DNA of 24,923 nt from a virus (Duplodnaviria > Caudoviricetes). The stretch lies in IMG/VR virus record IMGVR_UViG_3300033808_000067, positions 1-24,923 of that record; one strand, given 5' to 3'. Position numbers and translations under genes: made by a program. The notes beneath the pieces were generated by a model. That model had not been told where the DNA came from. It searched no databases and saw only the letters and a list, made by a program, of their open reading frames with translations. Below, piece after piece: positions 2,579-22,602 of the stretch. Numbering within the stretch: position 1 is the first letter of the stretch; each line of letters starts with the position of its first letter.

Positions 2579-3553
2579 TTATATGACTCTTTTGTAAGGA
2601 TGAACCAAGAGCTCGGCCTCTGTGGCCAGGTCTTCACCTGTCCGCCCCCCGGCGATAGACTCCGACCCCGGCATTGCCTGAATCGTGGTGGCAGTCGCAC
2701 CGCGGACAAGCGCCTGCGCCACACAGTAGAGAATCGCGGCCTGGATAATCGAATTCGGCAGCGTGCTAACCATCGTGCCGACTGGATGCGCATACGCCGC
2801 CGCCGCTGCGAGCGTCAGCACACCAGGCCCGGTCGCGGAGGACGCCGCGACAGTCGTAAACACTTCCTGCCAGCCGGGATCGTAAATCGTCCCGGCCGCA
2901 CCGGACGCGGCGGCGGGCAGCGTGCTCGCCGGCGGCGGACCCCACCCGGCACAGTCGTCCATGCTGACAGTCATGTCCCCGACAGCAACCGGTTCAGTAA
3001 GCGACCCGTGCGGCCAGCCGTTCACATATTCGATAGCGACCATGTACCCGAGCCGGCCTGCAAGCCATGACACGTTCCCAGGGGCGAGGAGAACCGCCTG
3101 CCCGGCATTGTCGGAACCGCTGGGAACACTCGTGCCATACACGCCGATCAGCGGTTTCTCGACCCTGACGTTCGCCGGGCCGACTGCCGTCCAGACAGGC
3201 GGGAACTGGCTGGCCAAAGTCACGTAGGCATTGAGTACCTGCGTGACAGGCGACCGGGACAGCAGCAGCCGGGCGTTGCCGTTCGGCTGCATGTGGAACC
3301 GGAAATCCCCCGGCCCGTACAAGACTTCCTGGTCAAGAGTCGCCCGGAGCGGCTGATTGCAATACCCGTCGATCATGGATGTGCTGCGGCGGCAAAGGTT
3401 AACCTGCTCGTTGAACTGCTGCTGCTCGGTGGGCTTGGCACCAGGCCCGAGAGTGGACCACACGATCCCGGTCGGAGCAGACAGAAGCATCTGAGGTGTC
3501 ACATACGGAGTGCCGGACGAAACAGCGACGGAAGCCGGATTCAGCTCAGCCAT
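2579..3553 (-). CDS. Putative head-tail connector/adaptor protein (324 aa)
   Basis: N-terminal 'PYVT...STSMIDGYCNQPL', 'YVNGW' and C-terminal 'LPNSIIQAAIL...AELLVHPYKRVI' resemble gp6/gp15-type adaptors; position downstream of capsid. Confidence 0.7.
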   Translation of the reverse strand: MAELNPASVAVSSGTPYVTPQMLLSAPTGIVWSTLGPGAKPTEQQQFNEQVNLCRRSTSMIDGYCNQPLRATLDQEVLYGPGDFRFHMQPNGNARLLLSRSPVTQVLNAYVTLASQFPPVWTAVGPANVRVEKPLIGVYGTSVPSGSDNAGQAVLLAPGNVSWLAGRLGYMVAIEYVNGWPHGSLTEPVAVGDMTVSMDDCAGWGPPPASTLPAAASGAAGTIYDPGWQEVFTTVAASSATGPGVLTLAAAAAYAHPVGTMVSTLPNSIIQAAILYCVAQALVRGATATTIQAMPGSESIAGGRTGEDLATEAELLVHPYKRVI

Positions 3554-3596
3554 AGAGAGGTGACCCCCTCCGCTGGCTTTCCCAGGAAAATGTCAG

Positions 3597-3749
3597 TCAG
3601 CTGAACCGGGCGACCATCGGCACGGTCAGATGCTGACAGTCACACCAGGTACCGCCGGGACAGCCGAGATGAAACCTGGCGATCACGTCAGCGCGTTCCG
3701 GCTGATCACGGAGCACCCGTCCCGCACACTGACATGACGGACAGATCAA
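3597..3749 (-). CDS. Small Cys/His-rich protein (50 aa; absent from ORF track)
   Basis: TTG start after AAAGG; MICPSCQCAGRVLRDQPERADVIARFHLGCPGGTWCDCQHLTVPMVARFS; MICxxC...HxxC...CxCQH pattern. Confidence 0.65.
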   Translation of the reverse strand: MICPSCQCAGRVLRDQPERADVIARFHLGCPGGTWCDCQHLTVPMVARFS

Positions 3750-3760
3750 CGTTCAACCTT

Positions 3761-3949
3761 TCAGCTGCCCGGCTGCCCGGCCCGAGCACACCTAGTGCAG
3801 ATCCACCCGCCGCAGCCAGGATCCTCTACCGCATGCCGCAGGCAGATCAGATCACCGCAGGCGAAGCAGATAATAGACGCAATTGACGGATGCCGTTTCG
3901 GGCCGCCGCACCTGGCGCACTGCGGCCGGGATCTGCGCCGGGCCCGCAC
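3761..3949 (-). CDS. Small zinc-finger-like protein (62 aa)
   Basis: CARC, CFAC, CLRH and CTRC motifs; packed between neighbours. Confidence 0.6.
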   Translation of the reverse strand: MRARRRSRPQCARCGGPKRHPSIASIICFACGDLICLRHAVEDPGCGGWICTRCARAGQPGS

Positions 3950-5958: not shown

Positions 5959-6303
5959 TCAGACCGCCATCCAGCCCCATGCCGGCGTGCCCGCACTGTA
6001 GGTGCAGGTGAATGTCTGATTAGCGGGGATCAGAATACTGGCGAACCCGCTTGCGGGAATCGACGGGGTGCCGCCGATGGTGACGCCGTTGATTTTGATG
6101 ACGGTTATGGCACCGGAACTGTTGGTGATGTAGGCCATTACGTTCACGCCGGTCGTGTTCGTGACTGCGACTGTGGTGGCCGGGAACGCGGGGGTTGTGA
6201 TGGTCGGCGGGACGGTGATGACACCGGGGAGCTGGGGGGGTGCGTAAAAGTTTTCGGATCCGGCTACAACTTGCGTGCCCGCCGGCGGCAGAGGCGTACC
6301 CAT
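5959..6303 (-). CDS. Small beta-rich structural/decoration-like protein (114 aa)
   Basis: AAGGAG SD; Thr/Val/Ile-rich; first gene after capsid. Confidence 0.7.
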   Translation of the reverse strand: MGTPLPPAGTQVVAGSENFYAPPQLPGVITVPPTITTPAFPATTVAVTNTTGVNVMAYITNSSGAITVIKINGVTIGGTPSIPASGFASILIPANQTFTCTYSAGTPAWGWMAV

Positions 6304-6353
6304 CTGGATTGACTCCTTGTGTGCGATTGGGATGCGCCGGGGCGGGCGCCGGG

Positions 6354-6400
6354 AAAGCCTGTGCGGGCCGGGAGTGTTCCGCCTTCCCGGCCCGCACAGG
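6354..6400 (-). terminator. Strong hairpin after major capsid gene (terminator, attenuator or stabiliser)
   Basis: 16-bp perfect inverted repeat CCTGTGCGGGCCGGGA / TCCCGGCCCGCACAGG (6358-6400) followed by CTTT on the minus strand. Confidence 0.7.
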
Positions 6401-6411
6401 AAAAATGTTGC

Positions 6412-7809
6412 TTAAGACCACGTTCCGAGAGTGCCGGACCGGTCAGTTTTCTGAACGCCCTGAATTAGGCCGCAGTAAAAAGGCGCGTTTACTACCAGGG
6501 CACCGTAAAGGAACATAGAATACCTGAAACTGGCATCAATCACCGGCCAGCTTATGCTCAGGTAATCTTGTACCGTCACAAACTCAACCACGTTGGTCAC
6601 ATTCGACCATGCGAACGGCATCGTATAAGACATGAGATATACGGACCCCTGAGGCAGCCAGGGATGGACGACGATCTTGACCACAGAACGTGTAATCGGA
6701 TTCTGAAATTCGGAAACAGCCGCGCCGAGGCGCACGCCGGGGACTTCCGCCTGCTCGACGAACAGCCGGTAGTTCGTGGCCGCGCCCTGCTGGACGATGT
6801 CATTAGACAGGCGCATGACATCGCCGCCCTCGGCAATGATTTCCGAAGGGTCAGCACGGTAAGCGCCGTATGTATTCGACGTGCCATCCCACAGCTGCTG
6901 GAACGCAGTGTTGAGCACTGACGTGCGCAGCGTGTCAGCAGTCGTGTTAGTGAAATAGCCGGCCTGCCAGTTCGACGGGTAAATACCGGACCCCGCCGAC
7001 GAGTGCCCAGACAGAACCGCGGTCAGCCCTTCCTGGTCATTCGCCGAATAGGTGCCGGCGGCAGCGACGGGAGCCGCAGTAGTGCTGGCTACTGCGCCCT
7101 GCAGGGTAACGTACGTGCCGCCAACGTTGGCGACCTGACGGTAGTAGGTGCCTGGGGCAGCGCCCGTGGTGATGTAAACGTCATACCACTGAGCCCCGAG
7201 CGACGGAGAGATCAAAACGTCGGCGACCTGGCCGTTAGACGCCGTAACGGCACCGGAACTGGTACTGACTGCAGAGTTGCCGTAGAACGTCCGGGCGACA
7301 ACTTCCACGTAAATGTTCGTGGTAATACCGGACATGGCGGTTTCCCCGCTGTTTGGGGAACGCATGGTAACAGTCGGCTGGCCGGGCGCGGGAACGACAG
7401 TGGACGTGGCCGCGAAATGCGCTGCTTCCTCATTCAGCATAAACTCCTGAAGCAAAAGCAGATTCGCCAGCGCGCTTATATCCTCAAAGCCTTGCCCCGC
7501 AAACTGAGCGAGCCATGACAAGTTTTCCGAGAGACCCCAGAAACGGTAGGGAATAGTGAGGTCGACGGCATCCTGAGTGCCCGTTCCTGGCAGGTTCAGC
7601 GGCCAGGTGACAGCTGTTGACGCCCCCCCGATTGCGCCATTGGACTGTACCAGCTCGGGAATGGCGAGGCGGACGAAACTCCCGCCGGACGGGCCGGTCT
7701 GCGACCCGGAAACGCCGGTGATGACCTTACGCTGCCTCTGAACACCCTGACCAGGCGTACGAGGCAATTTGTTGCGTAGAGGTGAATAGACCGGATAGAT
7801 GAGACTGCT
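6412..7809 (-). CDS. Major capsid protein, exon 2 (465 codons plus stop)
   Basis: Begins directly after the intron terminal G with SSLIYPVYSPLRNKLPRTPGQG, in frame with ORF 6412..7767; capsid-like C-terminus 'VSEFQNPITRSVVKIVVHPWLPQG...YGALVVNAPFYCGLIQGV'. Confidence 0.85.
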   Translation of the reverse strand, partial: SSLIYPVYSPLRNKLPRTPGQGVQRQRKVITGVSGSQTGPSGGSFVRLAIPELVQSNGAIGGASTAVTWPLNLPGTGTQDAVDLTIPYRFWGLSENLSWLAQFAGQGFEDISALANLLLLQEFMLNEEAAHFAATSTVVPAPGQPTVTMRSPNSGETAMSGITTNIYVEVVARTFYGNSAVSTSSGAVTASNGQVADVLISPSLGAQWYDVYITTGAAPGTYYRQVANVGGTYVTLQGAVASTTAAPVAAAGTYSANDQEGLTAVLSGHSSAGSGIYPSNWQAGYFTNTTADTLRTSVLNTAFQQLWDGTSNTYGAYRADPSEIIAEGGDVMRLSNDIVQQGAATNYRLFVEQAEVPGVRLGAAVSEFQNPITRSVVKIVVHPWLPQGSVYLMSYTMPFAWSNVTNVVEFVTVQDYLSISWPVIDASFRYSMFLYGALVVNAPFYCGLIQGVQKTDRSGTLGTWS

Positions 7810-9183
7810 CAGTTTTGTTACTCGGCCCCGGTTTGACCGGGCTACCGCGTTTCCGGGTAGCTCTGCATGTCTCCATGCAGCTCGGACTGTGTCACTATCT
7901 GATTACTGCGGACGGGATTCTTCCTTGCGTCGGCGTCCCGGCTTCCTGGGCTCAATGCCCAGGTGCTGCATAGCGTCCGTAACGGCGTGGACGCTGCACC
8001 CATACCGAGTGGCAAGCTGGCGCATGGTCTGACCGCTAGCGTACTGGTCGGGAAGGTCCGACCAGTCAATTGCTAGCCGCCGGTTGCTTTGTTCCGGATG
8101 CTCGCGCATCCAGTTCCCGTAGCACTTGGAGTCGCAGAACTTCTTCTTCGCGATGCGGGCGTTGTATGCATCCTTAGTGACCGGCTTGCCGCAGTGCCCG
8201 CAGGGCACGGTTTGCGGGCCGCCGTTCCAGTTTGGATTCTCAGCGCCCATCATCCCGGTGCGAATGTCCGCAACGGGATTTACATCTCGGACGAGGCCGC
8301 ATTCCCGGACCACCTTGCCGATGCATCCGGGAGCATCCCTGTTGATGTCAGCGCCGGTGAACCGGTAGACCGTGTATCCGGCCGCGGTGAGATTGGCGTC
8401 CCGTTCAGCATCCTGCTGTTTACGCAGATAGTGATGGGCGCCGTCTGCCTCGATGACAACCGGGGCCTGCTGAAGAAGAACATCTACGCAGTACCGGCCC
8501 AGCAGGACTCGCTGTGTCGAGAAGCTGATGCCGGCCTGAATGAGTGCTGCCTGGAGGAAACGTTCAAGGGGCGAGTTGGCTGACGGGCCTGTCATGGTCG
8601 GCAGGCGCTTGAGCAGCTTCGCTCTCGCATTCGCTCGGTACTCGGGCGTCGTTATCGCGGCCCGATGGTTCTGACGCCGTTCCGGGGTCCATGCTTCCCT
8701 AGTTGAGCCCCCGCGGTCGCGTGCGGTCACGCCGAGCCGCCGCATGGCGTTCTGGATGGCGTGAATGCTGCAATCGTAGTGGCTAGCCAGCTGCTCGAAG
8801 GTGAGCCCGCTAGCGTACAGGGCGGGAAGCTCGGACCAGTCGATCGCTAGTGATCGGCCTTCCGGCTGCGGGTTGATACCTTGCCGTTTCGCCTGCCAGG
8901 CAACGGTAGCCTTGCTAGCCCCGTATTCACGGGCAACGGCAGTGTACGAGCCAAGGCGTTCGTAGTCCGCCTTGAGGTTACTCCAGTCCATCAGATACCC
9001 CGCATACAGTCTCTACCGCCGGCTGGCTACGTGCCAGGCGACATCGGCGTTATCCACATAGCCACTATACCGGTTACATGAGCCGGTGCTCAGGCACGAC
9101 ACACCCGAACGCTAGTGCGAAGGACTTTCACCGAACAGCGGGGTTTGCTGCACGCCTCACGGCGTGAAGGCCCTAGCTAATCA
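7810..9183 (-). mobile_element. Group I self-splicing intron (1374 nt) in major capsid gene
   Basis: P1 with U.G at the 5' splice site; P2 CACGCC-GUGA-GGCGUG; P3 CCCCGC (9143-9138) / GCGGGG (9003-8998); P4 UCGGUG/CGCCGA; R UAGAGACUGU (9015-9006) and S GUGACACAGUCC (7895-7884) forming P7; P8 UAUCUGA/UCAGAUA; P9 CUGCAUG-GAGA-CAUGCAG; ends GUAACAAAACUG; removal restores the reading frame. Confidence 0.92.
7903..8991 (-). CDS. Intron-encoded putative homing endonuclease: Vsr/DUF559-like PD-(D/E)xK nuclease with three HTH repeats and a Zn finger (362 aa)
   Basis: 'SPLE...Q...GRYCVDVL...VVIEADGAHH...DAERDANL...GYTVYRF'; 'GAENPNWNGG'; 'CGHC...FCDSKC'; repeated 'DWSxL...Y...LA..Y.CS.HA...AM..LG'; located in the P8 loop. 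Confidence 0.85.
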   Translation of the reverse strand: MDWSNLKADYERLGSYTAVAREYGASKATVAWQAKRQGINPQPEGRSLAIDWSELPALYASGLTFEQLASHYDCSIHAIQNAMRRLGVTARDRGGSTREAWTPERRQNHRAAITTPEYRANARAKLLKRLPTMTGPSANSPLERFLQAALIQAGISFSTQRVLLGRYCVDVLLQQAPVVIEADGAHHYLRKQQDAERDANLTAAGYTVYRFTGADINRDAPGCIGKVVRECGLVRDVNPVADIRTGMMGAENPNWNGGPQTVPCGHCGKPVTKDAYNARIAKKKFCDSKCYGNWMREHPEQSNRRLAIDWSDLPDQYASGQTMRQLATRYGCSVHAVTDAMQHLGIEPRKPGRRRKEESRPQ

Positions 9184-9651
9184 AGGCGCGACGAGATCAA
9201 ATGGCACGAACCCGCTGGTCAGAGGGCTGGTAAGAGAAACCGACTTGCCGGTGATCTCAGACAGCTGGCTGTTCAGCTGGCCGACCAGGTTGGTCATTGC
9301 CTGGTTCTGCGGGGCGGCCTGCATGAACGCGCCGAACTGGCCGGCGAATTCGGGGGCCATGCCCTTGACCACGTCGCCAGGGTTTTCGATACCGTTCTTG
9401 ATCGCCCGGCGGAACGCGGATTCGGCCCGCATTGACCGTTTGAAGATCTGCTCGTCGTCGGCGAGGGGCTTGTTCCCGCCGGGCCGGCAGTATCCTGCGC
9501 CCTTGACGAGGGTCGGCATCTTATCGGAGAGCATCCGGTCTGGTGCTTCGTACCGGGATGCGTCAGCGTCGGCATACCATGCCGGGTTCGCGTCGGCTCG
9601 TTCCAGTGCAGCCTGTGCGGCTGAACCGTAAGGCAGAACGTCTGTACTCAC
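9184..9651 (-). CDS. Major capsid protein, exon 1 (156 codons)
   Basis: GGAG SD and ATG at 9651; ends ...SGFVPFDLVAP exactly at the predicted 5' splice site; the TGA at 9183-9181 is the first intron triplet. Confidence 0.85.
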
Positions 9652-9684
9652 ATGACTCCAAGAGAATGATTCGAAAATTTGAGG

Positions 9685-12600
9685 TCAGATGCCCGGTGCC
9701 GTCTGTGTCGGCGTGAGCATCTTGTCCAATGTGGCTAGGGCGGCCTCACGGACGCCGGGGTCAGGGGATTTGGCTAGGGCCTCGACGTAGGCCCGATACT
9801 GGGCTTGCTCGGCTTCGGCCATTTTTCGGACATGATCGGCATGTTCGTCTATCAGGGAACGGCGTTCCACGGGAACAGCCGTTTCTGCTGGCATTCTGGC
9901 CAGGGCGCCCCGGACGGGGGCCATCGCCGGGTCAGGCCGGGAACCGATTTCGTCTATCTGCTTGCGCAGTTCGGTGATCTGAGTTTCGTGAGCTTCCACC
10001 AGGGGGGTGAACTGCTCGGTCAGGAGTGCTTTCAGTTCGGCGGCGGTCAGCCCCGGCTGGACCGGGACCGCGGTTGTCTCGGCGGGGGGCGCATGCCGTT
10101 CGACTATGTCCAGGCCGAGACGGGCGGCGGCTTTCTCGATCCGCTTTCGTGTCATCACTGGCTTCACTGTGACTGGCATGCCTCCGCGGGCATTATGCCG
10201 GCGGATCGCGTCTGCGATGACGCCTTGCATTTCGGCTAGTGACATGACGTCCGGCTCAGTGGTTTTGCCGGCTGCGGGAATGCCGCCCTGGCTGGTGACG
10301 GTAACCGGCTGCGGGACGTTAGCCGCGCCGAGGTCGGGGGGGATGACGGACTTGGATGCGGCCATCGGGCACAGGTCGGGGAATGATCCGGCGATGTGGT
10401 CGTGCATGGCCTGCAATGCTGCTTTAGCGTTGTCACGCTGCTGGTTTGTGTAGTAGGTGCGGACCGCGCCGGTTCTGGGGGGGATAGGGAAGTTGTCTTC
10501 CTTGTTCGCCGGGGAATCCGCTTCATGGCCGTCTGTGATCAGCGGCCGGTGGAATTGTTCCGGTTCGGGTACTTTGCTTGACGGGGGAATGTTCGCGCTG
10601 CCGTTCCGTTCCGCCGTCTCGGCGGCATGCCCGGCAGTCAGGTACGGCCGCTGATAGGAGCCTGGCCTGATCCCGGACTGCGGGGTGATATTCAGGGTCG
10701 GGTACATGTCGGTGAATGCTTTGCGGAGCAGTCCGAGACCGTCCGCGATTGCAGCCGGGTCAGCATCCTTCACATACTGGGCGTCAGCGACCAGGCCGGC
10801 CAGGTATGCGGCTTCGGCGGCTTTCCCTGCTGCGGCGACGGCTGCGGCCTGGTCAGCGAACCAGGCGACATCTACCGCATCGGAAAATGATTTGAGCGAT
10901 GGGTATCCGGCGAGAGTTTCAGCCGGGTCGTAGGCGGCGCAAGTGAGGTCATGCAGGCGGCCGATGCGGTACGGGGCGCTGTCGTCTGTCTTGGTGCGGG
11001 GTTTCCCGGCGGGCGGCGGCCCGGTGTGGTCGTGGCTGGATACGGAGACGGGTATCTTGTCGGGAGTGCGGTCCGGGTCGGTGGGCAGCCCGGCGTCCGG
11101 TTCGAAGTCTTCGACGGTGGACGTGCCGTCTGGTTCCCGGTGCGGCCGGGCCGGTGCGACGTCGGCGGGCAGCTGCCGCTTTTTCTTGGCTTTGACCGCT
11201 GATTCGGCGGCTGCGGTGGCGATGATCTCGTCGGCGGCTTCGCGGGTGATCAGTCCGGCTTCAACGGTCTTGGTGACCGTGTCGGCTAGCGCGGCGAGCG
11301 CGGCTTCCCGTCTGGCTGTCTTGGCTGCCTTCCGGGCAGTCTTGCTGTCGGGGCTGGCCTCAGCTGCATCCGCATCCGCGGCGAGGGCGGGGGTGTCGGT
11401 CTTGGCAGTCATCTTCCCGGTGCCGTTACAATCCGGGCAGGTCCGGTTGTTGCCCATGATCTTGCCGTCGCCGTGGCAGGTGCCGCACGGCTTCCCGTCA
11501 CTGCTACTGCTGCTTTCGCCGTCTGTTTTCTTGACGGCGTCGGATTCTTTAAGCGGGTTCGGGACGCCGAGTTCTTTTGCCCGCCGGGAGATCAGCCGCC
11601 TGGCCGCAGCGACATTCCCGTGCCCGGATCTGGCTAGCACTGCGGCACGCCGCAGAGCGTCCGCGTCAGGGATCGGGTAACTGCCGTCCGGAAGCGAGTT
11701 GCCCTGGTGGGCAAGCTGCCGGCGGCGTTCAGCGGAGAAAAATCGTTTGTCTGCGACGTCGAGTGTTTTTAGGAGCGCTGTCTCGGCGGCGTCTGCTGCC
11801 TCGGCTTTCGCCAGCAGGTCGTCGTCGGCGCGCTTGGCCAGCCACCGTTCAGCGCCTTCCCGTGTCCCGGCCAGGCCTTCCGCGTCGCCTTCAGCCTGCC
11901 ATCGCATCCAGTCAGCGCGCTTGGCCAGGTATTCGGTGCCATGGGCGATGCCTTTGACGGTGGGCTCACAGGACAGCCATTGCGTCCTGGCGGCCTTGTA
12001 GGCCGCGCGGGTTTCATTGTCGGCGGCGGCGATCAGGTCAGCGGCGCCGGGTTCCTCCGTTTTTGACGCCGCATCGTCGTCATTGTCGTCATCACCGTCG
12101 TCGTCGTCATCGTCACTGTCATTGTCATCATCGGCGTCGCCGCTATCACTGGCAGCCTGGCTAGCATCATCCGCGGCCGGGCCGGATCCGTTACTGCTGG
12201 CCTTGACGAGCAGATCCTCCTCATCGGCGATCTTCGCGATCCAGTCCGGGTCGCCGACGAGCTCGCCGACAAGTTCCACGCTGTCCCCGGCGGCCTTGGC
12301 GATGACAAGCTGACAGTTTTTGTTCGCAGGCCGGTCCACCAGTGACAGCTCAGCCAGATGACCGCCTGTGACGATACCGCCGCGGGCTTTCCCGCTAGGG
12401 TCACGCATGACAACCGGCCGGGCAATGCCCACCGAGTAACTGGTCAGCACACCTTTCTCGACGAGCCGTTTGGCTACCGGCTCGACGACTAGTGACTTGA
12501 CCCAGTGGCCGCCGTCGCCGTCCTTGTCGATTTCGACAGACAGGCCCTTGCCAGCGGGGTCGCGCATGGCCTGATGCTGGACGCGGACATTGCCGCCGCT

Positions 12601-12777
12601 GTCCAGCCAGTCGGTGAGCGCTTTCGCGGACCAGGCCGGGTCGACTATCTGCTCGTCTGAGTCAACAGACCCGTCCGTGGCTTTCCCGACGACAATCAGG
12701 TCCCCGTCATCTGTCTTATCCCACTTGGTGATAGGGAAGGACAGGAACGTCAGCTCGTCACGTATGGCTGTAGCCAC
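9685..12777 (-). CDS. Prohead maturation protease (HK97-type) with long scaffold-like extension (1030 aa)
   Basis: N-terminal 'VDSDEQIVD', 'VRVQH', 'TSYSVG', 'ELSLVDRPAN'; acidic tract; CxxCxGxG pair; coiled-coil-like C-terminus; GGAGG SD; directly upstream of capsid. Confidence 0.85.
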   Translation of the reverse strand: MATAIRDELTFLSFPITKWDKTDDGDLIVVGKATDGSVDSDEQIVDPAWSAKALTDWLDSGGNVRVQHQAMRDPAGKGLSVEIDKDGDGGHWVKSLVVEPVAKRLVEKGVLTSYSVGIARPVVMRDPSGKARGGIVTGGHLAELSLVDRPANKNCQLVIAKAAGDSVELVGELVGDPDWIAKIADEEDLLVKASSNGSGPAADDASQAASDSGDADDDNDSDDDDDDGDDDNDDDAASKTEEPGAADLIAAADNETRAAYKAARTQWLSCEPTVKGIAHGTEYLAKRADWMRWQAEGDAEGLAGTREGAERWLAKRADDDLLAKAEAADAAETALLKTLDVADKRFFSAERRRQLAHQGNSLPDGSYPIPDADALRRAAVLARSGHGNVAAARRLISRRAKELGVPNPLKESDAVKKTDGESSSSSDGKPCGTCHGDGKIMGNNRTCPDCNGTGKMTAKTDTPALAADADAAEASPDSKTARKAAKTARREAALAALADTVTKTVEAGLITREAADEIIATAAAESAVKAKKKRQLPADVAPARPHREPDGTSTVEDFEPDAGLPTDPDRTPDKIPVSVSSHDHTGPPPAGKPRTKTDDSAPYRIGRLHDLTCAAYDPAETLAGYPSLKSFSDAVDVAWFADQAAAVAAAGKAAEAAYLAGLVADAQYVKDADPAAIADGLGLLRKAFTDMYPTLNITPQSGIRPGSYQRPYLTAGHAAETAERNGSANIPPSSKVPEPEQFHRPLITDGHEADSPANKEDNFPIPPRTGAVRTYYTNQQRDNAKAALQAMHDHIAGSFPDLCPMAASKSVIPPDLGAANVPQPVTVTSQGGIPAAGKTTEPDVMSLAEMQGVIADAIRRHNARGGMPVTVKPVMTRKRIEKAAARLGLDIVERHAPPAETTAVPVQPGLTAAELKALLTEQFTPLVEAHETQITELRKQIDEIGSRPDPAMAPVRGALARMPAETAVPVERRSLIDEHADHVRKMAEAEQAQYRAYVEALAKSPDPGVREAALATLDKMLTPTQTAPGI

Positions 12778-12810
12778 ATGCCTCCGGGTTGTCTAGTAGT
12801 TTCGGGCATT

Positions 12811-12836
12811 AAAAAGCCCCCCGGAGGACCGAGAGG
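12811..12836 (-). terminator. Intrinsic terminator-like hairpin upstream of protease gene
   Basis: Minus strand CCTCTCGG-TCCT-CCGGGGGG followed by CTTTTT. Confidence 0.55.
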
Positions 12837-12871
12837 AATTACGGAAATCTGGACGGCCGATATCGGCGGTT

Positions 12872-13231
12872 TTAAGGTTCCCCAGGTGCCCGGGCCCGGA
12901 AGTCCTCGTCAGCCTGATGTACGGCACTGTTCATCAGCCGGTGAACTTGCCGGCGGGAAGACCGCCACCCGGTCAGGACCACGATGTCGTCGCCGGGAAC
13001 AGCGCGGACAAGATAGTACGCCCAGCCGCCTTCATACGCGGTGGATAGCATTGCCGTGCCGCAGCTGGATTTCGCCAGGGCGCATGCGGCCCGAACACGT
13101 TCGGAGTCTTCAGGGAACAAGCCGGTAATGTCCGTGTCGTCCTGGCAGCGGCGGCGGCCGCGCGAATAGCCGACGGTGCCCCAGATGATGAGACCGGCAG
13201 CGGCGTAGACCAGTAGCAGCAACCAGACCAT
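12872..13231 (-). CDS. Hypothetical membrane-anchored protein (119 aa)
   Basis: Hydrophobic N-terminal helix followed by a basic stretch; purine-rich SD. Confidence 0.6.
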   Translation of the reverse strand: MVWLLLLVYAAAGLIIWGTVGYSRGRRRCQDDTDITGLFPEDSERVRAACALAKSSCGTAMLSTAYEGGWAYYLVRAVPGDDIVVLTGWRSSRRQVHRLMNSAVHQADEDFRARAPGEP

Positions 13232-14496: not shown

Positions 14497-14718
14497 CTAG
14501 TCGAGCTGGCCGCTGTCAGGCTGGGCTGCGCACCATTCGAGGCGGGCTGTTTCGACGGCGGGCCGAGTGATAATGTACAGGGCTTCGGTGCGGGTAAAGC
14601 CGGCTTCGCGGAGGCTGGTGAACCACTCGTGCTGGGCGACGCAGGCGATGCCGATGAACCCGAAACCAGCCGGCAAATCCACGTACCACTCCTTACCGCA
14701 GTGCGGGCTGCAATTCAC
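14497..14718 (-). CDS. Small hypothetical protein (true start may be an internal GTG)
   Basis: 'AQHEWFTSLREAGFTRTEALYII' resembles a recurrent small actinophage protein pattern; adjacent to portal stop. Confidence 0.6.
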   Translation of the reverse strand: MNCSPHCGKEWYVDLPAGFGFIGIACVAQHEWFTSLREAGFTRTEALYIITRPAVETARLEWCAAQPDSGQLD

Positions 14719-17700
14719 ATCTGCAGTTCGGATGCTGCGGCGGCTGAACAGTCCCGCCCGGAAACAACTCGCCGAACGGCATCGGGCCGGCGTCCTCGTT
14801 TTCGACGCAGACCGCGCACCTGTCCGAGAAAGGATCCGTGAGCCAGGCGACCGTCTGCACTCCGGCCTGCCGGTAATAGCCGGCCATCCCCTCGGCTATC
14901 GCCCAGGTAACCTCTGTCTGGGTTACTGTCAGCGCAGCCGGGATACTGCCCAGATCCGATCCCAGGCCGGCTTCCAGTTCCCCTGCCGGAACATTGGCGG
15001 CGGAAGCCAGCCGGGTGGTGATGGCATCTACCCGGGTCGCGGTCATCCCGTTAATCCGGGCTGCGGCCCGTGCGAGCGTCTGCTGCAAACCGATCTCGTC
15101 GGCAGCGGGCTCAGGCTGCCCGAGGAGTGTCGCAGCCGTCCGGCGTCCCAGTGCATAGCCGGCTGCCCACAAGTCCCGCAGGATGCGGGTCAGCACCGCC
15201 TGGATGGCTGCCGCGACCGCGGTGTCCTCCAGCCAGATACTCGGGCTGGAGCTTGTGAACGGCTGCCGGGCCAGCCAGCCCTGGGCTAGAGCCCGTGACG
15301 ATACTGCCGCAGCTAGAGCGGCTGCTAGTTCCCTGGCCGCCCGGCGGGCTAGCTTCCTGTCATGTTCCCAGCCGGGATTCCGCCCGGCCGGCAGTTTTGG
15401 GCGGCGCCCGCCGCCTGCCTTATTCGCCGGATCCGAGCCCTGATGGAACTGGAATGAATGTGTCTGATCCCACGGCCCGCCGTCCGCCGCGACGAACCCG
15501 ACATATGCTTTGACCGGCCGGTTAAGTTCCTTGTAGGCCAGTGTCCGGTGATGCCCGTCCACAATTTTGATCTTGTCGTCGCCGGGTTCCTGCACCGCGA
15601 CCACCGGCTGAGTATGCGCCTCCCCGGCCTTAATCTGCCGGGCGAACTCCCGGACCCTGGCCTGCTGATGCGTAGCCGCCCATTTGTGAATGTCGTCCAT
15701 GTCAATCCGGTCCACGGGAACCTGCACGGGCCCGATCCACCGGGCGTCCCGCATCCACCCGAGTGCTTTATCCGGAAAGTTTTTCCGCATCTGGTTGATA
15801 ACATGCTCGGCTTCAACCGGGTTCGGGTCCGTCAGATCCGCGGCGTCCTTGGCTAGCACGTCCCGGGCCGCGCCGATCACCTCGTCGGCTGTCAGGCCCT
15901 TGGCGAGGTCTTCGCCGATCGTCGCCATCAGGACCCCGGGCAGGTCCCTGGCCTGCCACCGGCCAGGATCGCCGCCTTTCCGCAGATAGGAACGCAGCAG
16001 GTCCAGTTCCCGCATTTTCCGCCCGGCCGCCGGCTGCCCGTTGCGGGCCGGCGTGCCAGCATGCGCCGGCGTGCCGGGAACATCCGTTCCGGTCGGGTTC
16101 CGCGGCGCGGTAAGTGCTGACCGGGGCCGCTGGCCTGGCAGCGGCGGCGGCGTATCCGTCTGCGCCTGCGCCTGCGGCTGAACCTGCGCCTGCGGCTGCC
16201 CGGCTGCCGGGGACTGCTGCCCGGTCACCGCCGGCGACAGCTGGGACGTGAACGGGATGAATCCGGTCCGCTCGGTTGACCAGCCGGGATCGGAAGTAGC
16301 AGGCAGGTTCCACGGGTCAAGCCCGAGTTCGGCGCGGGCCTCATCAATGGACCGCATGCCGGTGCTGACCTGCTGAACCAGCAGGCTGGTCAGCATCTCA
16401 GCGTCTTCGTCTTCTTCGAGACCTTCCCAGGTCCATTCCAGGTCAGACTGCCCGCAGACTCTTTGCAGAATCGTGTCGAAAATCGCGCATTTCATCCACT
16501 TGAGGAACGGGACAGTGCCTTTCCGTTCCTGCGTATCCTGCGAGCTTTTCGCCATCTGATTGCCGGCGCCCATAGTCTGGGTGGTCGAAACCCTGGGCGT
16601 TATCCCCAGTTCCATCGGCATCACGTTGAAAGCCATGCAGACCTGCACCATGACAATCTCATCGAACTGGTCTGCGAGACTCACAGGTTTCTGCGGGTCC
16701 ACTTTCGACCCGCCCGGCAGGACAATGATCTTATGCTTCCATGCCTGGTCTCCGGCCAGCGCATTCAAGGCGTCTTGCAGCTCGCGGATCTGCGTGGGAG
16801 TCATATTCGGGTCACCAGGTGACACGAACAGGCCGGGAATAGATCCTTCCTGAAAGAAATTCATCTGATATTGCTGTTTATTCAGCCCGGTCATCACCGG
16901 GATGATTGCCCGCTCGATCGGAGCCTGCCCGTACGGCGTCCATGTCCGCTGCGAGAACGGCAGGTACATCAGCTGGTCGGCCCGGTATTCGGCAGCGATT
17001 TTCTGCTCATCAGGATTGTCTTCGCCTAGCAGCAGGGTCATCAGGTCGACGCGGGGCACGCCGTACAGGAACTGCTGGAACGCGGGGTTCGGGGGGAGCG
17101 GCCGGCCGCCGCGGATGTCGACCAGCGGTCGTATCAGCGTGCCGTCGAGCAGGTCCAGCGCGGCAATGTCTGATCCGAGGAGTCCTTTTTTCCGGGCCAT
17201 GGCCGGCTGGCTGTAGACGGCGAGCGCGTCGGTGACGAATACTTCTTCGAGGAGCGCGTCGAACCAGGATGAAAAGTCGGAGTACATCGGGTCGGGGCGG
17301 GAGAAGAACCGGACGGCTGCGGCTTTGCGGGCGGCGAAGTCTTTCATTCCGCTCCGGTCGCCGCGGAGGGCTTTGGCGGCGTTTTTGGTGAGGGTAATAT
17401 CCCAGCCGATGCCGCGAAGTTCTGATTTGCGGAGTTCGATGCAGGCGCGGGCGACGGAGTACAGGTCGGCGATGGTGCGGAGTGTCTGGAAGTTGGCGAG
17501 CTTGCCGACGCCTTCGGTGCCGGGCATGCCCATGGGCATGTTCCAGCCGACGTTGTATTGCCATCTGCGTGGTTCTGGCCGGTCTTCGCCTGGTTCGGGG
17601 ATGTCGACGGGGACGGGGCGGATAGGAGCGAGCGGGCCGAACATGCCGGACAGGAACGCGGCAGGGTCGCGGGGGAGCGCGCCCTGAGTGCCGTAGGCGT

Positions 17701-17851
17701 GCCCGGATGTCCATTCGCTGTAGGAGGCGACGAGGGGGGACGGGCCGGGGCTGATGGATGGCGCGGCGGGGATGGCAGAGTACCCGCCGGCCTGCGGGTT
17801 CGGGGCCGTGGCCTTGAGCGCGCGCATGATGGCACGGGTATCCGCGGGCAC
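14693..17851 (-). CDS. Portal protein fused to a ParB/Srx-like domain and a C-terminal MuF-like minor head domain (1052 aa)
   Basis: Portal: 'VARACIELRK', 'PYGQAPIERA', 'FFQEGSIPG', 'AFNVMPMELG', 'SIDEARAELGLDP'; ParB: 'PVVAV...IVDGHHRTLA'; MuF: 'WLT...RCAVC..N...PPQHPNCRC'. Confidence 0.85.
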   Translation of the reverse strand: MPADTRAIMRALKATAPNPQAGGYSAIPAAPSISPGPSPLVASYSEWTSGHAYGTQGALPRDPAAFLSGMFGPLAPIRPVPVDIPEPGEDRPEPRRWQYNVGWNMPMGMPGTEGVGKLANFQTLRTIADLYSVARACIELRKSELRGIGWDITLTKNAAKALRGDRSGMKDFAARKAAAVRFFSRPDPMYSDFSSWFDALLEEVFVTDALAVYSQPAMARKKGLLGSDIAALDLLDGTLIRPLVDIRGGRPLPPNPAFQQFLYGVPRVDLMTLLLGEDNPDEQKIAAEYRADQLMYLPFSQRTWTPYGQAPIERAIIPVMTGLNKQQYQMNFFQEGSIPGLFVSPGDPNMTPTQIRELQDALNALAGDQAWKHKIIVLPGGSKVDPQKPVSLADQFDEIVMVQVCMAFNVMPMELGITPRVSTTQTMGAGNQMAKSSQDTQERKGTVPFLKWMKCAIFDTILQRVCGQSDLEWTWEGLEEDEDAEMLTSLLVQQVSTGMRSIDEARAELGLDPWNLPATSDPGWSTERTGFIPFTSQLSPAVTGQQSPAAGQPQAQVQPQAQAQTDTPPPLPGQRPRSALTAPRNPTGTDVPGTPAHAGTPARNGQPAAGRKMRELDLLRSYLRKGGDPGRWQARDLPGVLMATIGEDLAKGLTADEVIGAARDVLAKDAADLTDPNPVEAEHVINQMRKNFPDKALGWMRDARWIGPVQVPVDRIDMDDIHKWAATHQQARVREFARQIKAGEAHTQPVVAVQEPGDDKIKIVDGHHRTLAYKELNRPVKAYVGFVAADGGPWDQTHSFQFHQGSDPANKAGGGRRPKLPAGRNPGWEHDRKLARRAARELAAALAAAVSSRALAQGWLARQPFTSSSPSIWLEDTAVAAAIQAVLTRILRDLWAAGYALGRRTAATLLGQPEPAADEIGLQQTLARAAARINGMTATRVDAITTRLASAANVPAGELEAGLGSDLGSIPAALTVTQTEVTWAIAEGMAGYYRQAGVQTVAWLTDPFSDRCAVCVENEDAGPMPFGELFPGGTVQPPQHPNCRCELQPALR

Positions 17852-20223: not shown

Positions 20224-21399
20224 ATGCAGGAGACCGTGCGTTACAACTACCGGCTGCGCCCTGGTGCCCAGGCGGAACGCGCGCTGCTCGCTGAGTGGGC
20301 TCGGTGCCGGTGGATTTGGAACGAGTGCGTTCACCAGTACCGCGCCGGGCGAAAGCCCACTCGATGCAAGCTGGGAAAACTGCTGACCGAGGCACGCAGG
20401 CAGTTCCCCTGGCTCCGCGAAGGCTCCCAGAACGCCCAGCAGCAGATGCGAGACACCTACATGCGGGCGCTTCAGGATTCCTTCCGAGTCAAAGGCCGGG
20501 GCCGGCCCGTGCTCAAGCGTCGGAAGATTGAATTGCCATCGCTGGAGTACACAGTCAACGGGTTCAAGATCAAGGACGGCCTGCTGTTTTTGCCCAAGGG
20601 CGTCTCGGTGCCCGTGGTGTGGTCCCGTGACCTGCCTAGCGAGCCGAAGAGCGTCCGGATCTACCAGGACAGCCTCGGCTACTGGAACGCATCGTTCGTC
20701 GTCCGACGTAAAGCAGAGCAGTTCCCCGAGGCTACGGGCGGCATCGGCATCGACTGGGGCGTCAAGACTCCCGCAGCTACCACCGACTCTGCCTACGATC
20801 TGCCGTATCTCGGGCACCGGAAGCGGTGCGCCGCCGAGGTTGCCCGGGCTCAGCGGAAGATGGGCCGCCGGGCCCGCAAACGCGGCGGCAAGCTGCACGG
20901 CATGCAGTCGAAGAGTTACCAGCACGCGGCCCGCCAGGCCGCTCGGCTGCACAAAAAGGCTGCCCGGCAGAACCGGCACGACGGACGTCAGTGGGCCAGG
21001 AAGGTTACCGCCGATCACGCCCTGATCGCCGTCGAGGACTTCCGGCCCAAATTCCTCGCCAGGTCCACGATGGCCCGCAAAGCAGCCGACTCCGCAGTCG
21101 GCACCCTCAAGCGGACCCTCATCGAGTACAGCACGCGGGCTGGCCGGAAGGTGGTGCTGGTCCAGCCCGCCTACACGACCATGACCTGCTCTGGGTGTTT
21201 CGCGAGAACCAAGCAACGCCTTGAGCTGGCCGAGCGGACTTTCGTGTGCCGGTCCTGCGGAATGGCAGAGGACCGAGACGTGAACGCTGCCAGGGTGATC
21301 CTGGCCGTGGCAGAACGGGGCCACGCAAGCGCTGAGGATATAAGACCCGGATGCCTTCGGGCAAACAGGCAGTCTGAGTTTGGAATCCCCCGGCTTTAG
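20224..21399 (+). CDS. tnpB: RNA-guided endonuclease TnpB (IS200/IS605 family), 391 aa
   Basis: N-terminal HTH 'YNYRLRP...CRWIWN'; RuvC-I 'GIDWG', RuvC-II 'AVEDF', Zn finger 'CSGC...CRSC', RuvC-III 'DRDVNAA'. Confidence 0.95.
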   Translation: MQETVRYNYRLRPGAQAERALLAEWARCRWIWNECVHQYRAGRKPTRCKLGKLLTEARRQFPWLREGSQNAQQQMRDTYMRALQDSFRVKGRGRPVLKRRKIELPSLEYTVNGFKIKDGLLFLPKGVSVPVVWSRDLPSEPKSVRIYQDSLGYWNASFVVRRKAEQFPEATGGIGIDWGVKTPAATTDSAYDLPYLGHRKRCAAEVARAQRKMGRRARKRGGKLHGMQSKSYQHAARQAARLHKKAARQNRHDGRQWARKVTADHALIAVEDFRPKFLARSTMARKAADSAVGTLKRTLIEYSTRAGRKVVLVQPAYTTMTCSGCFARTKQRLELAERTFVCRSCGMAEDRDVNAARVILAVAERGHASAEDIRPGCLRANRQSEFGIPRL

Positions 21400-22107: not shown

Positions 22108-22569
22108 TCATTTAGGGGCGCGACTCCCAGCCGTGATATTCGAGTCGCACGGATGATGTCCGTAGGCTAGGAACCACTTATTGGCTTTCCGGAACCTATC
22201 GCCAAGCCAGAATCCCCATTCCCGTGCCGGGCGGCCGGTGATGAGCACCGTCCAGGCGCCGCCTGTATCAGGCACAACTGTGTGGCGGTGAAGGGCCGGG
22301 CGGTAGCGGACCGATCCGGCAGTCAGGTGATCAGCGTGGCCGGGATTCTTATCGGTGTACCCGCCGGACAGGACGAAGGTGACGAACCACCACGGGTGGT
22401 CGTGGAAGGCGCGATTATCATCGGGGCCGAGCCAGTGATGGACACGCAGCGATCCGAGCGGGGTTTCGAGCCGCCAGCAGATCACGTACGGGCATTCGGG
22501 CAGGCCGAGTCGCTCGGCCAGTCTGACCAGTACGGGGTAGGGGAATCGAACCCGCCGTCGCCGCCTCAT
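22108..22569 (-). CDS. Cupin-like phage protein (start uncertain)
   Basis: 'LRVHHWLGPDDNRAFHDHPWWFVTFVLSGGY...RYRPALHRHTV...WTVLITG...WGFW' has cupin HxH and distal His motifs. Confidence 0.7.
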   Translation of the reverse strand: MRRRRRVRFPYPVLVRLAERLGLPECPYVICWRLETPLGSLRVHHWLGPDDNRAFHDHPWWFVTFVLSGGYTDKNPGHADHLTAGSVRYRPALHRHTVVPDTGGAWTVLITGRPAREWGFWLGDRFRKANKWFLAYGHHPCDSNITAGSRAPK

Positions 22570-22602
22570 CTGAGCGGTGCTCTGCCGTTGAGCTATCCCC
22601 GT
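22531..22602 (-). tRNA. Degenerate tRNA-like element (GAU at the anticodon position; probably a pseudo-tRNA)
   Basis: Cloverleaf: ACGGGGA-TA-GCTC AACGGCA GAGC-A-CCGCT CAGATGA GGCGG-CGACG-GCGGG TTCGATT CCCCT-ACCCCGT-A; A33 instead of U33, two stem mismatches, no encoded CCA. Confidence 0.6.

Follow-up and report, generated by a model that had tools for sequence, protein, structure and literature searches.

A probable self-splicing group I intron with a putative Vsr-like homing endonuclease in the predicted major capsid gene of an actinobacterial-type phage

Group I introns in the capsid genes of phages are already known in kind. The closest verified example, which matches the one considered here in class, in kind of gene and in host group, lies in the major capsid gene of the mycobacteriophage LittleE (JF937101), where splicing was established by reverse transcription polymerase chain reaction (RT-PCR) and N-terminal sequencing, and the accessible part of that report also cites a group I intron in the lactococcal phage Tuc2009 (PMC3706429, Pope et al. 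2013). In crAss-like phages, group I introns have been described in major capsid genes, one of which is broken into five fragments (PMC7886860, Yutin et al. 2021); these differ in belonging to gut phages of Bacteroidetes and in having been inferred from endonuclease domains, and the accessible passages of that paper hold neither a catalogue of sites nor an analysis of RNA structure. The subject of the present analysis is a 24,923-nt stretch of viral DNA (Duplodnaviria; Caudoviricetes; IMG/VR record IMGVR_UViG_3300033808_000067, positions 1 to 24,923), referred to as the window, whose predicted major capsid gene is interrupted by an insert. With a probability of about 0.92, this insert is a group I intron which likely self-splices to restore a 621-aa capsid protein of predicted HK97 fold, and the open reading frame (ORF) in its L8 loop likely encodes a homing endonuclease; judged from its sequence, the intron is very probably functional and probably mobile. 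The first-pass annotation of this DNA had described an intron in a structural gene as unusual, which was overstated given LittleE, verified at the RNA level in 2013, Tuc2009 and the capsid introns of crAss-like phages. What the locus adds is a Vsr-like ORF in L8, a single site that is shared across lineages, and a hotspot of introns that spans the capsid family.

As in the window, the major capsid gene of LittleE, an actinobacterial phage, is split by a group I intron with U/G boundaries, and this intron has a similar position, a short way into the mature capsid protein, the equivalence of the N-arms of the two proteins being presumed. The two differ in that the intron of LittleE is approximately 820 nt long and carries an antisense endonuclease ORF downstream of P9, as opposed to the sense Vsr-like ORF in L8 of the window, and their capsid proteins have no detectable sequence similarity (best E 4.0). 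The LittleE endonuclease is described as LAGLIDADG-like in the accessible part of PMC3706429 and as HNH in the sequence record. The split gene of the window is laid out as follows.

9184..9651, minus strand: exon 1 of the major capsid gene (468 nt, 156 codons, GTG start, ends in U)
7810..9183, minus strand: predicted group I intron (1374 nt; opens with an in-frame stop codon, TGA, and closes with G)
7903..8991, minus strand: intron ORF of 362 aa, putative homing endonuclease (helix-turn-helix (HTH)-like repeats, DUF559/Vsr-like domain, four-cysteine motif, C-terminal HTH)
6412..7809, minus strand: exon 2 of the major capsid gene (1398 nt, 465 codons plus stop; predicted HK97-fold body)

Neither exon contains an internal stop, and their in-frame joining gives a product of 621 aa which is 80% identical to an intronless relative of 622 aa (P0002), with only single-residue insertions or deletions between them. 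Exon 1 shares 64-81% identity with its nearest relatives and likely represents an N-terminal scaffold-like region that ends where the N-arm begins. Searching with exon 2 returned 837 homologues, of which 120 were listed, and in all 91 of the listed proteins that match both exons the junction is free of gaps, not one residue being lost or gained; the remaining 29 are all shorter proteins without exon 1. Two registers of the junction score equally and yield the same protein, and only in the one chosen by the first-pass annotation is the insert preceded by U and terminated by G. Its proposals that the 156-aa ORF and the “451-aa” ORF are exons of one gene, and that splicing at this junction would give a 621-aa product, are thereby upheld at exact coordinates, as is the continuous alignment of homologues across the junction, which had been set beforehand as a check. 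The junctions are unlikely to be artefacts of assembly, because single contigs span both of them in run X1, the possible source of the window, and one contig of run X2, from another study, spans the 5′ junction with zero differences, both runs being peat metagenomes. Among the sequencing runs listed as carrying this DNA none is of RNA, and no intron-skipping joint occurs in the contigs of the two DNA runs, results that have no bearing on splicing; neither a second intron in the window (covariance models of both halves) nor a mini-insert in exon 1 or exon 2 was detected. The runs also contain other contigs with diverged relatives of the intron and ORF (window 8440-9145), one of which is present at higher depth than the phage of the window.

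The RNA structure of the insert, which carries much of the argument, is predicted to consist of the following elements in the order of transcription.

9170..9187, minus strand: P1 and internal guide, which also pairs with exon 2 as P10; U.G pair at the 5′ splice site
9151..9166, minus strand: P2 hairpin with GNRA loop; two-sided changes in 7/8 counted pairs
9129..9143, minus strand: P3 5′ strand (9143-9138) and P4 5′ strand (9134-9129), by comparative pairing
9050..9128, minus strand: P5 and its extension, holding a candidate -10 element (9069-9064)
9017..9049, minus strand: P4 3′ strand (9049-9044) and P6 (9043-9017), by comparative pairing
8991..9013, minus strand: P7 5′ strand (9013-9007, with the guanosine-binding G), P3 3′ strand (9003-8998) and P8 5′ strand (8997-8991)
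7884..7902, minus strand: P8 3′ strand (7902-7896), J8/7 and P7 3′ strand (7889-7884)
7810..7883, minus strand: P9 (7880-7863, GAGA loop), P9.1 (7861-7841), P9.2 (7840-7828), 3′ motif and terminal G

All the helices named at first are present, to which P6, the P5 extension, P9.1 and P9.2 are now added, together with a conserved 3′ motif before the terminal G at 7810. For P7, the conserved form comprises G(9013), a bulged A and five base pairs to 9007, pairing with 7889-7884; the extra U-A pair originally assigned to this helix falls away, not being kept in L082, L088 and L091. Across the 5′ halves of nine introns at the same site (codon 156), 94.9% of the cells of the 46 proposed pairs in P1-P6 are paired and 19 of the 46 pairs have two-sided changes; this pairing is matched by 0/500 shuffles, and controls with slid registers reach 40-48%. 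In 20 introns from other sites, 98.8% of the cells of 16 core pairs are paired. Over 27 introns of the class, strands form more Watson-Crick pairs with their own partners than with cross partners in P7 (5.67 vs 4.74 of 6), P3 (5.74 vs 4.00) and P8 (5.85 vs 4.48), with 0/2000 shuffles in each case, and the guanosine-binding G-C pair of P7 is kept in 27/27, a count in which the P7 3′ strand was located by P7-like patterns, so that the anchor is not fully independent, and in which L104 is mis-anchored and L041 and L054 (site 272) were dropped. The U.G pair of P1 at the 5′ splice site is found in eight of the nine aligned rows, the ninth, L161, being misaligned there. The guide sequence tracks exon 2: that of the window pairs with its own exon 2 at -5.5 kcal/mol, compared with -0.1 to -2.8 for six other same-site exons, and for the class P10 averages -2.66 vs -1.30 across sites (1/5000 shuffles), many single P10 helices being weak.

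Subgroup IA2, the type of the classic phage introns, has as its hallmark the extra helices P7.1/P7.2 between P7 and P3. A linker of 3 nt connects P7 with P3 in the 27 introns that were parsed on this spacing, and the IA2 type was therefore rejected. Going by group I chemistry, a guanosine bound in P7 would attack the U.G site in P1, after which P10 would align exon 2 and the exons would be ligated after the terminal G. The stop codon with which the intron opens would likely release ribosomes and thus allow the RNA to fold. Most of the same-site introns begin with an in-frame stop, a feature which the accessible part of PMC3984707 links to folding.

It could be argued that the intron has decayed or splices poorly, in which case the capsid would be made from exon 2 alone or the phage would be defective, and the possible TTG start at 7767 in exon 2, as well as the one-base offset and bulge required by P10, would agree with this. 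Such a start would, however, drop 14 residues that are conserved in all full-length homologues; the intron has an intact core and a full-length ORF, its guide has been altered to suit exon 2 of the window, and exon 1 is conserved to the extent given above. We consider a decayed intron very improbable.

Covariance-model searches, which had been put forward as a check together with the first annotation, gave a divided answer, in that the general Rfam model failed and models built for the purpose matched both halves of the intron. The Rfam group I model (RF00028) has no match in the whole window or in the 5′ half. On eight related loci, RF00028 scores the other class of insert found there at 27-66 bits, and it misses full-length introns of the window's class in L016, L041, L061 and L075, apart from one 30-nt fragment at E 0.95, as well as ORF-less introns of this class (266-290 nt) in relatives. 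Because same-class introns are missed even when they are full length or lack an ORF, the failure of RF00028 is uninformative, and gaps of this model for some group I subgroups are noted in the accessible parts of PMC6125680 and PMC11878797. The purpose-built models R1 (5′ half) and R2 (3′ half) were derived from introns at other sites, without any site-156 intron. R1 matches the window at 9147-8990 (59.6 bits, E 5.8e-15) and R2 at 7904-7810 (64.9 bits, E 2e-15), the latter match ending exactly at the predicted terminal G, and neither has another convincing match in the window. The same models score the RNA-verified intron of LittleE at 62.0 and 55.6 bits, which is the ground for placing it in the same structural class.

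These results also bear on the reading of the region as three separate genes, or of the insert as an intein, an insertion sequence, a group II intron or an assembly chimera. Automated gene calling does present separate proteins of 451 aa (P0001) and 362 aa (P0121), and the Rfam match is absent. This reading is nevertheless refuted by the gap-free homologues and the covariation, and its likelihood is negligible. The U/G boundaries, the covarying group I helices and the model matches fit a group I intron, and a group II intron was considered and rejected; an intein is excluded by the stop codon at the first position of the insert; and contigs span both junctions, with the same arrangement recurring in independent contigs.

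The capsid identity of the split gene, which had been proposed at the outset, is supported by HK97-like matches of a structural model and by the order of the portal and protease genes. An AlphaFold2 model was made for the relative P0002 from an alignment of 86 sequences (mean predicted local distance difference test 72, predicted template modelling (TM) score 0.65), and its Foldseek matches in the PDB are phage capsids (SPO1, E 7.5e-9, SU10 and Pa223) and encapsulins, the best match in BFVD being the major capsid protein of Arthrobacter phage Jasmine (E 3.9e-12). The gene follows those of the portal and of a protein in the protease/scaffold position. In PHROGs it falls into an unnamed family, NCBIfam gives no family name for P0002, a PDB sequence search with P0002 returned nothing, and exon 2 matches five of 50,697 GenBank phage records, at 25-31% identity. 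The actinobacterial-type host suggested earlier is supported indirectly, as all five matches of the capsid family in prokaryote genomes are in Actinomycetota.

The start codon of the 362-aa ORF takes in the final base of the P8 5′ strand, and its stop codon immediately precedes the P8 3′ strand; the ORF therefore lies in L8. Its Vsr-like nuclease identity, which was missing from the first reading, comes from a DUF559 domain at aa 146-230 (56.6 bits, above the Pfam cut-off), the ORF also having four invariant cysteines and HTH-like modules towards its N- and C-termini. Among 56 aligned of 151 homologues, the predicted catalytic residue E143 is kept in 55 and D170, E181, H187 and D194 are kept in all, so that the active site looks intact at the level of sequence. 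The best solved match of the ORF profile is 3HRL (E 3.5e-7), and a tblastn search with the ORF among the 50,697 GenBank phage records returned nothing. Vsr-related ORFs in phage introns have been reported, as far as the accessible part of PMC12350094 goes, and the closest characterised system is I-Bth0305I, encoded in the recA group I intron of the Bacillus phage 0305phi8-36. It resembles the window ORF in being a Vsr-like nuclease with conserved acidic and histidine residues and an HTH (PMC3239194, accessible part), and the catalytic residues of the window ORF may be mapped onto those of I-Bth0305I. According to the same passages, the I-Bth0305I ORF interrupts P5, and in its product the NUMOD2 repeats are N-terminal and the nuclease C-terminal, unlike the window ORF, which is located in L8 and has a central nuclease followed by the four-cysteine motif and HTH. 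In L092, L093 and L104 (site 166), the related ORF is without a start codon at P8, and it may instead begin farther upstream, within P5, and run through the ribozyme core.

The closest relatives of this ORF occupy the same codon of the capsid gene (L081, L082, L084, L086, L087, L088, L091, L161 and duplicates). Except for L161, these same-site introns are 81-87% identical to that of the window in the core and 60-67% in the ORF, exon 1 being just 29-44% identical; for L161, the values are 70% for the core, 44% for the ORF and 26% for exon 1, its intron (2814-3884) being located in a capsid gene approximately 24% identical to P0002. The nearest capsid relatives (76-83% identical) are without the intron. 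As the same intron is shared at the same codon by capsid genes with exons 1 only 26-44% identical, the sequences point to homing or lateral spread. In a mixed infection, the Vsr-like nuclease would cut an intron-free allele near codon 156, and repair would copy the intron in. A blastn search with the intron core, and with the intron of a relative, found nothing among the 50,697 GenBank phage records. In L099, positions 1383-1683 hold an ORF-less intron of the other (RF00028-like) class at codon 156, and two classes of intron have therefore reached one site.

An alternative is that the intron splices and that the loop ORF does not encode a homing endonuclease specific to this site, being instead a passenger, a splicing helper or a nuclease acting mainly against coinfecting phages. 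A close relative of the ORF (64% identical), in L085, whose 5′ end is cut off, apparently lies upstream of site 156, at a distance of approximately 10 nt; the ORF gave no sequence match to the structure of the characterised EDxHD enzyme, and the domain order is unlike that of I-Bth0305I; and interference by an intron endonuclease has been reported for phiPA3 in the accessible part of PMC11620839. Against this, the catalytic residues are nearly invariant in the 56 homologues, and those closest relatives with enough flanking sequence are found at or next to codon 156, the more distant ones being tied to sites of their own (166, 269, 272 and 274). Interference and homing are, moreover, mutually compatible. 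We regard this alternative as unlikely, although it deserves more weight than a decayed intron, and retain a homing endonuclease as the likely function of the ORF.

The site at codon 156 is one of many in this family. The beginning of exon 2 was used to retrieve 80 viral loci, the top-ranked of 120 (L016 and L017 being near-duplicates), and 12 of these capsid-first loci contain intron 3′ ends, 26 in total, the highest numbers being six, in L042, and five, in L075. Spliced alignment of 34 chosen loci, in which U/G ends were imposed, gave 56 distinct inserts, of which 48 pass a boundary filter whose P1 component, the best match in 50 nt, is lenient, and these occupy 21 sites; the number is given as approximately 20 because a few neighbouring sites may be boundary errors. 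The eight failing inserts were left out of the site count; four of them looked misplaced or spurious, and site 272 (L041, L054) and site 573 (L094) failed on P1 length alone. The sites cluster at P0002 codons 152-166, 243-282 and 564-600, and the shortest exons measure approximately 27-42 nt. This family-wide hotspot, with about 20 sites and up to five or six introns per gene, is a new detail. Three to six group I introns of two classes are found per capsid gene in L042, L075, L041, L044, L082, L090 and L092, together with micro-exons of approximately 27-42 nt; the related Vsr-like ORFs in these genes are each associated with different sites. One capsid intron, L040:4346-5282, bears an antisense ORF that echoes the one in LittleE and which, from its motifs, we take to be LAGLIDADG-like. 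The 5′ boundaries of L040:3626-3998 and L031:3582-3966 are not cleanly placed, and in L040 a full intron may be preceded by an additional short insert.

It has to be noted that, besides the missing Rfam match and the incompletely independent anchoring of the 27-intron count, several results weigh against the proposal of a spliced capsid gene with a mobile intron. The site-156 intron occurs in 0/80 of the capsid-first viral loci, and the same-site copies were found through loci fetched via the ORF, which is a biased route. Minimum-free-energy folding of the 5′ half is no better than that of shuffles (z -0.39) and was therefore not used as support. The fold was obtained from the relative P0002, and the whole-chain TM-scores of its top matches are low (0.24-0.37 by query), probably because the N-terminal 160 residues are poorly modelled and a beta-rich insertion lies near 300-415; the Pfam family SU10_MCP stays below its cut-off (20.4 vs 24.1 bits, E 4e-4). 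The ORF profile misses the structure of I-Bth0305I (PDB 3R3P) among its five matches at E up to 1, and because of this and the differing domain order the ORF is described as Vsr-like on its sequence and not as a proven EDxHD member. Finally, local folding leaves the ribosome-binding site (RBS) of the ORF mostly paired, even in a short internal transcript.

The last result concerns how the nuclease might be expressed. The intron endonucleases of phage T4 belong to the GIY-YIG or HNH families. In the T4 td, nrdB and nrdD introns (I-TevI, II and III), the endonuclease gene sits in a loop, has its own promoter and has its RBS sequestered by RNA; these introns differ in interrupting DNA-metabolism genes and in using a dedicated RBS hairpin (PMC2988022, accessible part). 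In the window, P5 holds the candidate promoter, and the Shine-Dalgarno-like sequence appears to be a strand of the core helix P3 itself, its bases coinciding with the P3 3′ strand (9003-8998). A TAnnnT hexamer is present in the P5 extension of 17/17 ORF-bearing introns of the class (window 9069-9064; 8.2 expected from shuffles), in its extended TG form in 7/17 vs 0.63 expected; the 10 ORF-less introns have a short P5, and their three hexamer matches are the P4 strand itself. The hexamer may thus be put forward as a candidate endonuclease promoter, a new detail, weakened by the facts that the 17 introns represent few lineages and that the hexamer also lies in a helix. A sigma-70 promoter scan of 6200-13000 found no site, and a literature search, to which most subscription journals and supplements were outside the coverage, found no paper on the phage family or on a P5 promoter. 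More speculatively than the splicing and homing steps, the nuclease would be expressed from this promoter inside P5, as in the T4 intron endonucleases.

A wider picture can be offered only tentatively, and we rate it below even odds: radiating composites of intron and Vsr-like ORF may have colonised one capsid gene of uncultured actinobacterial phages at approximately 20 sites, across lineages approximately 25-45% identical, with the promoter in P5 and the RBS and start in P3/P8. Such an arrangement would reconcile expression of the endonuclease, which otherwise conflicts with splicing, and no description of a regulatory design of this kind was found in the literature covered.

Other features of the window are the following.

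9685..12777, minus strand: immediately upstream gene of 1030 aa; N-terminus weakly like a head maturation protease (phrog_9427, E 0.008)
14693..17851, minus strand: portal protein fused to ParB-like and minor-head domains, by domain matches
22530-22602, minus strand: gene for tRNA-Ile (GAT)

The protein encoded at 9685-12777 is unusually long and contains an acidic tract as well as, near aa 430-460, a DnaJ-like cysteine repeat. An ORF of 391 aa at 20224-21399 (minus strand) belongs to no family in Pfam or NCBIfam, and its motifs presumably resemble those of IS200/IS605 TnpB.

The finding corrects the annotation of the locus from three apparent genes to one capsid gene and an intron ORF. As standard Rfam screening misses the class of intron found in the window, such capsid genes are being fragmented or misnamed in metagenomes. 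The finding also weakens the notion that the group I introns of phages prefer genes of DNA metabolism, and the introns in 12 of the 80 capsid-first loci suggest that conservation of the target sequence may outweigh gene function. Related Vsr-like ORFs tied to different sites of one gene make nuclease retargeting, and the co-evolution of intron and guide, open to direct testing; if the wider picture given above is true, the family would constitute a natural library of retargeted nucleases and guides aimed at neighbouring sites of a single gene.

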